NCBI GenBank assembly: GCA_963701665.1
Contig: OY969622.1
Location: forward strand, 505,159-569,158
From: Candidatus Babeliales bacterium
Lineage (GTDB): Bacteria; Babelota; Babeliae; Babelales; JANWKD01
Direction: 5' to 3'
DNA length: 64,000 nt
In this document: piece after piece, positions 54,716 to 55,040 of the stretch
Numbering within the stretch: position 1 is the stretch's first letter
Layout of the letters: each line of letters starts with the position of its first letter
Translations under genes and position numbers: made by a program
Notes under the pieces: generated by a model
Told to the model about the DNA's origin: nothing
The model's database searches: none
Seen by the model: only the letters and a program-made list of their open reading frames with translations

Positions 54716-54802
54716 GCGGAAGTGGTGAAATTGGCAGACACGCAGCTTTGAGGGGGCTGTGGGAGAAATCCTGTAGGGGTTCGAGTCCCCTCTTCCGCAC
54801 CA
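54716..54802 (+). tRNA. tRNA-Leu (GAG), class II with long variable arm
   Basis: Acceptor gcggaag/cttccgc, anticodon loop ttGAGgg, variable arm gggagaaatcct, T-arm agggg ttcgagt cccct, encoded CCA. Confidence 0.9.
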
Positions 54803-55040
54803 ATCTACGCCCGCATGGGGAAAAACTTCGATGTGATATTTGGCTACGATTGGCTTCGCCAGTTTTCTTTAAGGAAATGATGGCGTAGATTGCCCGTCGA
54901 CAAAGTCCGACGAAGCTTGCCAAGCCGGAAGGCGTGGATAAGCGTAGGCGGAAGCTTAATTTCTCTTCGAAGATATTCCATTGCAAGCGAAGACTGGGCG
55001 GCCTTTGCCACCATCTTTGCATTAAGGAAATGTAAAAAGT
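54803..55040. repeat. tRNA-abutting repeat R2
   Basis: Starts atctacgcccgcatggggaaaaacttcgatgtg... directly after CCA. An internal inverted repeat pairs caatctacgcc (54801-54811) with ggcgtagattg (54882-54892). The right limit is approximate. Confidence 0.7.

Follow-up and report, generated by a model that had tools for sequence, protein, structure and literature searches.

Within a 64-kb stretch of the genome of a Candidatus Babeliales bacterium (contig OY969622.1; called the window below, with a GC content of ~37%), four tRNA genes were called with ARAGORN and Rfam, all on the + strand, and three of these, tRNA-Phe(GAA), tRNA-Leu(GAG) and tRNA-Met(CAT), are followed directly by copies of a common repeated unit, which we term the CCA-anchored trailer (Table 1). 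In each of the three the base after the terminal CCA opens ATCTACGCCnnCATGGGGAAAAACTTCGATGTnnnATTTGGCTACGATTGGnnnCGCCAG, as an initial annotation of this DNA had proposed, and the 32-nt trailer start ATCTACGCCnnCATGGGGAAAAACTTCGATGT lies at 27884, 54803 and 56735; with up to 3 mismatches allowed these were its only matches in the window, against 0 expected by chance from shuffles. The fourth tRNA was confirmed to lack the repeat, running directly into unrelated sequence with no trace of the trailer. The trailer is always co-oriented with its tRNA and begins at +1 after CCA, and its start was absent away from tRNAs in the window and in 12 related Babeliales loci, so that the objection anticipated in the initial annotation, that copies might lie off tRNAs, fails for this leading part.

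Anatomy of the trailer unit

By comparison with relatives the unit was split into blocks. S1 consists of CCA, a short element X of 2-5 nt and CTWCGC, and is separated from S2 (GCTWCG, X' and TGG) by an optional hairpin. H2 is a small hairpin of the form TGGC-loop-GCCA, S3 (GCGWAG, X' and TG) is the reverse complement of S1 from the CA of CCA onwards, and P4 closes the unit in forward orientation with stem, GWA, GC, loop, GC, GAA and stem. The two inverted copies described previously, GGCGTAGATTG and GCGTAGATTG, correspond to S3 of the Leu and Met trailers and are indeed complementary to CAATCTACGCC, including the terminal CA of the tRNA. The motifs gccggaagg and gcgaagactgg, described at the same time, are both present, but as parts of the one hairpin P4 rather than as separate modules: the former is the tip of the expanded P4 loop and the latter the 3' side of P4.

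Regular-expression and pattern scans together with a covariance model identified S1-loop-S2 as the P4 hairpin read on the opposite strand, with minus-strand module matches overlapping the tRNA end in two relatives (L007, 9802-9827; L055, 1932-1962). The first module is inverted, its stem formed by the (A)CCA of the tRNA plus the 2-5 bases of the element (CCA-X) with a downstream X'-TGG. The trailer is thus built up as a mosaic from a single hairpin module used both ways round, the first module borrowing the (A)CCA of the tRNA. Use of a module in either orientation, also reported earlier, is directly visible in the window, where 27940-27987 is 88% complementary to 56823-56870, the P4 module of the Phe copy being inverted. 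The CG(T/A)AG core is conserved; it sits within the hairpin's internal loop instead of forming a 5' head.

Owing to the inverted partial copy in its P4 loop, folding of the whole Leu unit gives a long imperfect palindrome with either strand (z-scores of -3.4 and -3.2), and a short trailer of the TAC type described below gave an unremarkable folding z-score of -0.9. The Met copy is an internally deleted version of the ~210-nt unit found after tRNA-Leu; in the predicted fold of the tRNA-Met precursor the acceptor stem is retained, P4 forms, and S1:S3 pairs starting with the terminal A. H2 and the T-run after it were flagged as terminator-like after tRNA-Leu (54848-54864) and tRNA-Phe (27929-27945), within background counts; H2 of the Met copy was not flagged, and high-GC versions of the unit from other phyla have no T-run. 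The S1/S3 inverted repeat covers only the first ~90 nt, the unit running 70-120 nt past S3. Its left flank is CCA and its right flanks are unrelated.

Table 1. Coordinates of tRNA genes, trailer blocks and hairpin modules in the window, and alphaproteobacterial loci in which the motif lies between a tRNA and a GIY-YIG open reading frame.
Feature	Position or loci	Strand	Remarks
tRNA-Phe(GAA)	27809-27883	+	ARAGORN; terminal CCA is part of the first hairpin stem of the trailer
Phe trailer	27884-28030	+	Sequence parse
Phe S1 (with CA)	27882-27892	+	
Phe S2	27923-27934	+	GGCTACGATTGG
Phe H2	27932-27942	+	Small hairpin
Phe P4-type module, inverted	27940-27983		Creates a direct S1 copy, CAAACTACGCC, at 27973-27983
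Phe partial second unit start	27984-28003		Followed by CGAAGACTG at 28022-28030
Fourth tRNA (CAT), trailer-free	42558-42634	+	ARAGORN; next open reading frame ~30 nt downstream
tRNA-Leu(GAG)	54716-54802	+	ARAGORN
Leu trailer, full-length	54803-55012	+	Sequence parse
Leu S1	54801-54811	+	CAATCTACGCC
Leu S2	54842-54853	+	CCAATC pairs with GATTGG
Leu H2	54851-54861	+	TGGCTTCGCCA; then a T-rich run and TTTAAGGAAAT at 54863-54880
Leu S3	54882-54892	+	GGCGTAGATTG; reverse complement of S1
Leu expanded P4 hairpin	54892-54999		GCCCGTC..GAAGC..GCCGGAAGGC..GCGAAGACTGGGC; loop contains an inverted partial copy of the first part
Leu terminal hairpin	54997-55012	+	
tRNA-Met(CAT), elongator type	56658-56734	+	ARAGORN
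Met trailer, shortened	56735-56898	+	Sequence parse; top match of the covariance model
Met S1	56733-56743	+	
Met S2	56774-56785	+	
Met H2	56783-56793	+	
Met S3	56814-56823	+	GCGTAGATTG
Met P4	56823-56872		GCCCGTC GAA GC (25-nt loop hairpin) GC GAA GAC-T-GGGC
Met 3' hairpin	56863-56898	+	
Two hairpin modules (stem-GAA-GC-CTTG-GC-GAA-stem)	12445-12513	one per strand	Inside a Rickettsia palindromic element (RPE)-like repeat, not beside a tRNA
Hairpin module ACCTAC GAA GC CTTG GC GAA GTAGGT	45201-45226	+	Nested in another RPE-like repeat
tRNA-Tyr GTA context	L126-L130		tRNA, motif, GIY-YIG
tRNA-Ser GCT context, Reyranella type	L131-L140		tRNA, motif, GIY-YIG
tRNA-Ser TGA context, two Bosea vaviloviae chromosomes	L141, L142		tRNA, motif, GIY-YIG
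tRNA-Ser GCT context, Parvibaculum	L144-L146		tRNA, motif, GIY-YIG

Occurrence in Babeliales and in other phyla

SecD of the window has its closest matches among proteins named Candidatus Babeliales (Dependentiae/TM6), and we compared the tRNA-Leu / secD / tRNA-Met / pgsA locus in eleven further Babeliales genomes. Two strains, L003, which lies on an ENA contig of 1.32 Mb, and L004, are 98.8% and 98.9% identical to the window. Behind tRNA-Met, where the window copy is internally deleted, L004 has a trailer of full length (~210 nt), which indicates that the full unit is that of 54803-55012 and that copies within one genome exchange sequence. A trailer fills the tRNA-Leu site of the window, L006, L055, L007, L008, L122 and L125, the site being empty in L011, L013, L121 and L124; that of tRNA-Met is filled in the window lineage, L007 and L055 and empty in L008, L011, L013, L121, L122 and L125. 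Relatives with 68-86% SecD identity carry the element at the same tRNAs. Two subfamilies, an ATC type with a long first part and a short TAC type, are scattered over both main clades of the SecD tree and are incongruent with it. The Leu trailer of L007 and the Met trailer of L055 are 82% identical (73% for the host secD genes), and hosts whose secD genes are 79% identical have same-site trailers of just 55% identity. Occupied and empty sites in close relatives, replacement of one subfamily by another at a single site and spread to tRNA-Met and tRNA-Phe together point to mobile, or at least copy-prone, behaviour; a fixed processing signal would not show such occupancy, replacement and spread.

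Several features of the surrounding DNA were recorded at the same locus. Upstream of secD the motif (A)AGAGTAGAAT is conserved in L006, L008, L011, L055, L121, L122 and L124 (in the window as AAGTAGAGT at 55036-55046), with TGAGTAGCAG in L007 and L125, and it looks like a -10 element; in trailer-free genomes it stands directly after the CCA of tRNA-Leu (L011, L124) or ~20 nt on (L121), which makes the trailer an apparent insertion between the tRNA and the secD promoter region. At empty tRNA-Met sites (L008, 2091-2097; L121, L122, L125) the pgsA start codon lies 5-6 nt past CCA, implying a tRNA-mRNA co-transcript in which pgsA would be almost leaderless after excision of the tRNA. Upstream of tRNA-Leu, L004 (1-975) and the window (53245-54715) have different genes despite 98.9% identity from tRNA-Leu on, the window gene there being a 467-aa Lys/Glu-rich coiled-coil-like open reading frame (ORF).

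The element X differs by lineage, being AT in the window and L122, TA in L007, L008 and L055, AC in Acidobacteriota, GA in L051 and TCCTG in Alphaproteobacteria, and S2 and S3 track it across these lineages. Helices were counted on fixed-register excerpts, in alignments of hand-cut segments joined by AAAA, with bulged copies left out (S3 of the L055 Met copy, S2 of L051 and S2 of the alphaproteobacterial copies). For the S1:S3 helix 82% of cells were paired and 7/12 pairs had changed on both sides, giving a covariation score of 0.378 compared with 0.14 in shuffles (0/500 reaching the observed value) and with much lower scores for slid-partner controls. The CCA-X:X'-TGG helix was 94% paired, with 2/2 variable pairs compensatory. 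Set against L122, the window carries a T-to-A change concurrently in S1, S2 and S3, and CAACC/GGTTG in L087 is matched by the compensated pair CATCC/GGATG in L131. The co-variation of X with S2 and S3 and the paired-helix statistics therefore indicate that complementarity is selected. Mismatches were balanced between G-U and A-C (4 to 4), with no strand asymmetry, which together with the equal folding of both strands is as expected of a DNA palindrome; there is selection on complementarity, with nothing placing that selection in sense-strand RNA.

Scanning metagenomes for the tRNA-Leu(GAG) 3' end yielded 72 loci, among which ~10 of high GC have the same collinear blocks after CCA, in L020 for example as CCA ACC TTCGC (hairpin) GCTACG GT TGG CAA GCCA C GCGAAG GT TG TCCGCC GTAGC TTTA GCGAAG GCGGAC. 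These loci were assigned to Acidobacteriota (Vicinamibacterales/Terriglobia) via one neighbouring protein. The order S1 / hairpin / S2-H2 / S3 / P4 was also found after tRNA-Leu(CAA) at one end of a contig in a viral collection (L111, from an unidentified host) and after tRNA-Ser(GCT) of Reyranella soli (L087), these being the two real cases among 40 matches in a viral-contig scan with GCTWCGNNTGGCAAGCCA, of which ~38 were chance matches inside genes. The window trailers themselves show S1 / S2-H2 / S3 / P4 collinearly from +1 after CCA. A covariance model of S3+P4, built solely from alphaproteobacterial, acidobacterial and L111 sequences and run unfiltered, gave the window Met trailer as its best match (26.4 bits, E 9e-5), followed in the window by hairpin modules within RPE-like repeats; in the other Babeliales loci nearly all its matches lay in tRNA trailers, including those of L007, L003 and L055. 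Only S3+P4 was modelled, since an X of 2-5 nt kept MAFFT from aligning S1 and S3 across groups, and the Leu copy was missed because its P4 loop measures ~65 nt.

In acidobacterial loci a second insert family was seen after tRNA-Leu (L018, L020, L021, L024, L052 and L076), ~100 nt long (CACTCRCTTCGYTCG...CTCGGCCNTCGGGC) and closing each time with a second copy of the tRNA's final 21-25 nt; in L052 and L020 the CCA-anchored motif comes after this insert. Such inserts may represent miniature integrative elements, or else may have been left behind when breaks at the tRNA 3' end were repaired.

Downstream of the motif in L087 lies an 80-aa ORF of the GIY-YIG family (PF01541). Among 3149 homologues in this family four were looked up, and the arrangement of tRNA, motif and 80-aa GIY-YIG ORF was found in 4/4 distinct alphaproteobacterial contexts. 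In Bosea, Parvibaculum and L126 the ORF starts no more than ~12 nt from P4 and its ribosome-binding site is the 3' strand of P4, GGAGGG (GGGGGG in Parvibaculum), paired with CCCTCC or CCCCCC; in the Reyranella type (L087, L131) the ORF lies ~100 nt further downstream, past S2-H2. The protein is a catalytic domain of 80 aa with no DNA-binding domain, and is chromosomally encoded. On the right-hand side of the element, a repeat after the ORF was considered as its end and set aside, being a single S3-like stretch in Bosea only and hence not general. The two Bosea vaviloviae chromosomes (L141 and L142) are identical through tRNA-Ser, motif and GIY-YIG gene and diverge ~140 nt after the GIY-YIG stop into different islands, that of L141 starting with a phage-type integrase, which indicates an integration hotspot just beyond the element. 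In B. vaviloviae CP017147 the locus lies around 4.3419-4.3422 Mb.

Interpretation and rival explanations

Taking in the observed anatomy, CCA anchoring, co-variation, presence and absence among relatives, subfamily incongruence, cross-phylum collinearity and the GIY-YIG link in Alphaproteobacteria, the reading that we favour, at a probability of about 0.5, is that the trailer is a non-autonomous selfish element resembling repetitive extragenic palindromes (REPs) and miniature inverted-repeat transposable elements (MITEs), resident at tRNA 3' ends and related to the alphaproteobacterial element that bears a GIY-YIG gene. The initial annotation had offered three explanations, a mobile element, remnants of attachment (att) sites and a maturation trailer; the first is the best supported, given empty orthologous sites, subfamilies incongruent with the tree, several tRNA species, a palindromic mosaic and a spread across phyla with a nuclease gene in Alphaproteobacteria. 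The second found no support and the third became the main rival.

For the mechanism of such a selfish element we infer a mobilising enzyme, a cutting site and transcription as follows. The complete form would be that of Alphaproteobacteria, with its stand-alone GIY-YIG gene, and the copies in the window, in other Babeliales and in Acidobacteriota would be its gene-less forms. A trans-acting nuclease would cut either extruded hairpins or DNA at or close to tRNA 3' ends that carry no copy, and repair would copy the element from an occupied tRNA, with the conserved T-arm, acceptor strand and CCA as upstream homology. Gene conversion, together with inversion between internal inverted repeats, would then homogenise and rearrange resident copies. 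Lying downstream on the same strand, the trailer is probably transcribed with its tRNA and would then fold back on the CCA end; if maturation or termination is affected at all, this would be a side effect or would stem from later co-option.

A number of points weigh against the selfish-element reading. No GIY-YIG coding potential was found in the window or at any Babeliales or acidobacterial locus by tblastn and a hidden Markov model of 120 homologues, and no transposase or integrase adjoins any Babeliales or acidobacterial copy; the lack of an integrase beside the window copies had already been remarked on. The nuclease link draws on four alphaproteobacterial contexts and runs via leader homology only, and could reflect a secondary insertion of the gene into a pre-existing trailer. 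The survey within this genome comprises 4 tRNAs. There is no copy of S1 at the right end, no inverted repeat at the two outer ends and a fuzzy right boundary, and filled and empty sites (L008 with L121, L007 with L125) show no target-site duplication. Between the window and L122 the unit is 71% conserved (secD 73%), and conservation of the TAC type exceeds that of secD, which could equally mean purifying selection for a host function. Beyond these loci, tblastn of the GIY-YIG protein against plasmid and phage collections and blastn of the acidobacterial motif against plasmids gave no match.

Ranked second, and in our judgement distinctly less likely though clearly ahead of the remaining alternatives, is a 3' trailer RNA selected by the host, co-transcribed with the tRNA and folding on its CCA (as CCA-X:X'-TGG or as CA-X-CTWCGC with its complement), which might determine 3' processing, form a protective hairpin, terminate transcription or insulate the downstream mRNA (secD, pgsA) from the tRNA. 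The unvarying orientation and +1 start fit such an RNA, as do the compensatory changes that maintain both CCA-containing helices in three phyla, the noncoding sequence conserved at or above the level of secD, the predicted tRNA-Met precursor with acceptor stem, S1:S3 and P4 all in place, and the sequestration of the next ORF's ribosome-binding site by the alphaproteobacterial P4, an RNA-level role. The terminator-like flags on H2 and its T-run after tRNA-Leu and tRNA-Phe speak for it as well, but the high-GC versions have no T-run. It is also at odds with the lack of the trailer after the fourth tRNA and after the orthologous tRNA-Leu and tRNA-Met genes in close relatives, with a module used both ways round (inverted in the Phe P4), with antisense strands that fold equally well (and a TAC-type z-score of only -0.9), and with the lack of any excess of G-U over A-C on the sense strand. 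Nor did it match an Rfam family: in Rfam 15, with gathering and E-value thresholds and with window, high-GC and alphaproteobacterial loci as queries, only tRNA reached threshold, a weak sX4 match being the tRNA-Ser part of the query and a mascRNA match the T-arm. The selfish and host-function readings are not exclusive, as an element in that position could be co-opted.

We consider it very improbable that the trailers are attL or attR scars of integrative elements or prophages once present in these tRNA 3' ends. tRNA 3' ends are classic integration sites, real integrations of 2.1 kb (L045) and 11 kb (L087) occur beside the motif, each between a tRNA and a partial duplicate of its 3' end, and the ~100-nt acidobacterial inserts carry similar duplicates. 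However, both L045 and L087 have the motif behind the distal tRNA duplicate (in L087 the distal att duplicate), which marks it as the native trailer and not the integrated element; one sequence follows three tRNAs with differing 3' ends, and the window copies have neither an integrase or recombinase nearby nor a duplicated tRNA 3' end.

Still less credible is a coding function for the leading part, as a small peptide or fragment of a retropepsin-like protease (MGKNFDVIFGYDWLRQ...). The first part of the trailer (54815-54880, 27896-27945 and 56747-56803) translates as MGKNFDV(I/L/K)FGYDWLRQ, which resembles the retropepsin (D)VILGMDWL. In all three copies the reading frame stays open and uses synonymous Leu codons (TTA/CTT/CTC), the changes in the L122 orthologue VGKDYKVKLGFDWLRR are conservative, and one variant weakly matches Pfam RVP_2 (E 0.0087, 16.3 bits). 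That match falls under the Pfam cutoff of 20.3 bits, with no match for the other three variants, and the resemblance was judged to be chance; ORF length and C-terminus vary from copy to copy, the TAC-type and high-GC versions lack the frame, and the hairpin modules fully account for the conserved bases. Chance similarity, or a recent segmental duplication spanning the three tRNAs (the local duplication raised as a caveat at the outset), has next to no probability, for although alike T-arms and CCA ends inflate the apparent repeat by ~25 nt, no match is expected by chance, the tRNAs and their flanking genes all differ, and relatives at the SecD distances given above carry the trailer at the same tRNA-Leu and tRNA-Met sites.

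Relation to known elements and implications

Set against known systems, the trailer appears most like REP/BIME/REPIN and RPE-type repeats, and its putative complete form most like free-standing GIY-YIG homing endonuclease genes. With REP/BIME/REPIN elements it shares short, GC-rich, imperfect palindromes that are intergenic and downstream of genes, mosaics in either orientation, a G(T/A)AG-containing core, homogenisation within a genome and a non-autonomous nature. It differs from them in being anchored at tRNA 3' ends with CCA in the stem, in its low copy number, and in a CG(A/T)AG core within the GWA/GAA internal loop where a REP has a 5' GTAG head; furthermore, REPs are mobilised by RAYT, whereas the only nuclease associated with the trailer is GIY-YIG, in Alphaproteobacteria only. 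No RAYT (Y1 HUH transposase) was present among the ORFs examined in the window and in ~20-kb pieces of relatives. Of the hallmarks of REP/REPIN elements, a palindromic unit in mosaics of both orientations is the one that the trailers and the RPE-like repeats clearly display.

Rickettsia palindromic elements (RPE) and other bacterial MITEs (Correia, ERIC, Nezha) are likewise palindromic non-coding repeats of 100-200 bp, with a reduced intracellular bacterium as the setting, and the RPE-like family of the window contains the trailer's own hairpin module; those repeats are dispersed or inside genes, while the trailer stands strictly at the tRNA CCA. Outer terminal inverted repeats and target-site duplications, as of MITEs, were not found for the trailer, and the window holds no related insertion sequence (IS) sharing its ends, the trailer being unlike the two IS110-family copies or anything else there. 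The RPE-like family occurs at 7392-7517, 12432-12585, 19654-19780, 23513-23626, 39172-39277 and 45134-45318, with the layout TGTCATCCCGAGGC..GCCGTGGGGATCC..TTAAAGGAA..TGGATTGCCACGCTTCGCTCGCAATGACA and an AT-rich centre that shares TTAAAGGAA with the trailers; two of its copies hold the trailer's hairpin module nested in an arm, away from tRNAs. Two diverged IS110-family transposase genes were also noted (23851-24792 and 29784-30764), with 75-78% nt identity over aligned repeats. The latter, which was the one tested, matched Pfam DEDD_Tnp_IS110 and Transposase_20 and lies 1.9 kb downstream of tRNA-Phe; the former lies ~225 nt downstream of an RPE-like repeat, recalling IS110-family insertion into REPs. 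A link between IS110 and the trailer was rejected, as both genes share nothing with it.

In phage T4, SegB is encoded by a free-standing GIY-YIG homing endonuclease gene in a tRNA gene cluster. The alphaproteobacterial form resembles this in having a GIY-YIG nuclease gene beside tRNA genes, and spread by break repair with co-conversion of flanks would explain both copying to other tRNAs and the partial tRNA 3' duplications; it differs in that its protein is an 80-aa domain only, is chromosomal and has a conserved structured leader, and the window form is gene-less. SegB is named in PMC13096335. Integrative elements that target tRNAs also begin as foreign DNA at or near a tRNA 3' end, but the trailer has neither an integrase nor a direct repeat of a tRNA fragment, and here one sequence follows many tRNA species. 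A known conserved tRNA 3'-trailer element is similarly found at many tRNAs, with a role proposed in maturation or as a functional RNA; its sequence is unrelated, it begins at +10 and not +1, it is confined to a single lineage and no CCA pairing has been described for it.

Searches of a collection of species-representative genomes with the 20-mer ATGGGGAAAAACTTCGATGT gave only two chance matches in Flavobacterium, and the window-type 27-mer had no match in JGI metagenomes. Full-text literature searches turned up no account of such palindromes downstream of tRNAs, of a CCA-anchored repeat, of a Dependentiae repeat of this kind or of tRNA genes trailed by a GIY-YIG gene that has such a leader; in the literature searched, the CCA-anchored trailer element is undescribed.

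Tentatively, and with distinctly less confidence than the selfish-element reading as such, we suggest that these sequences may represent a novel class of selfish element in at least three phyla, in which a domain-only GIY-YIG gene with a structured leader would home to the exact 3' end of tRNA genes, using a hairpin that incorporates CCA for recognition or anchoring and tRNA promoters for expression. Derivatives without the ORF, such as the three of the window, would persist as trailers and may have been co-opted for tRNA 3' maturation or termination in reduced genomes through sequestration of CCA. If true, this would be a target-specific family of palindromic repeats aimed at the universal CCA end of tRNA genes, and it would offer a candidate function for the very common, uncharacterised stand-alone bacterial GIY-YIG proteins of 80-100 aa, as well as a candidate trans-acting partner, other than RAYT, for REP-like hairpins. 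For annotation, sequence conservation that starts at +1 past the CCA of several tRNAs is not necessarily the mark of an att site. The trailer would also provide a natural tRNA precursor with a base-paired CCA, bearing on the maturation of CCA-encoding tRNAs in RNase-poor genomes.

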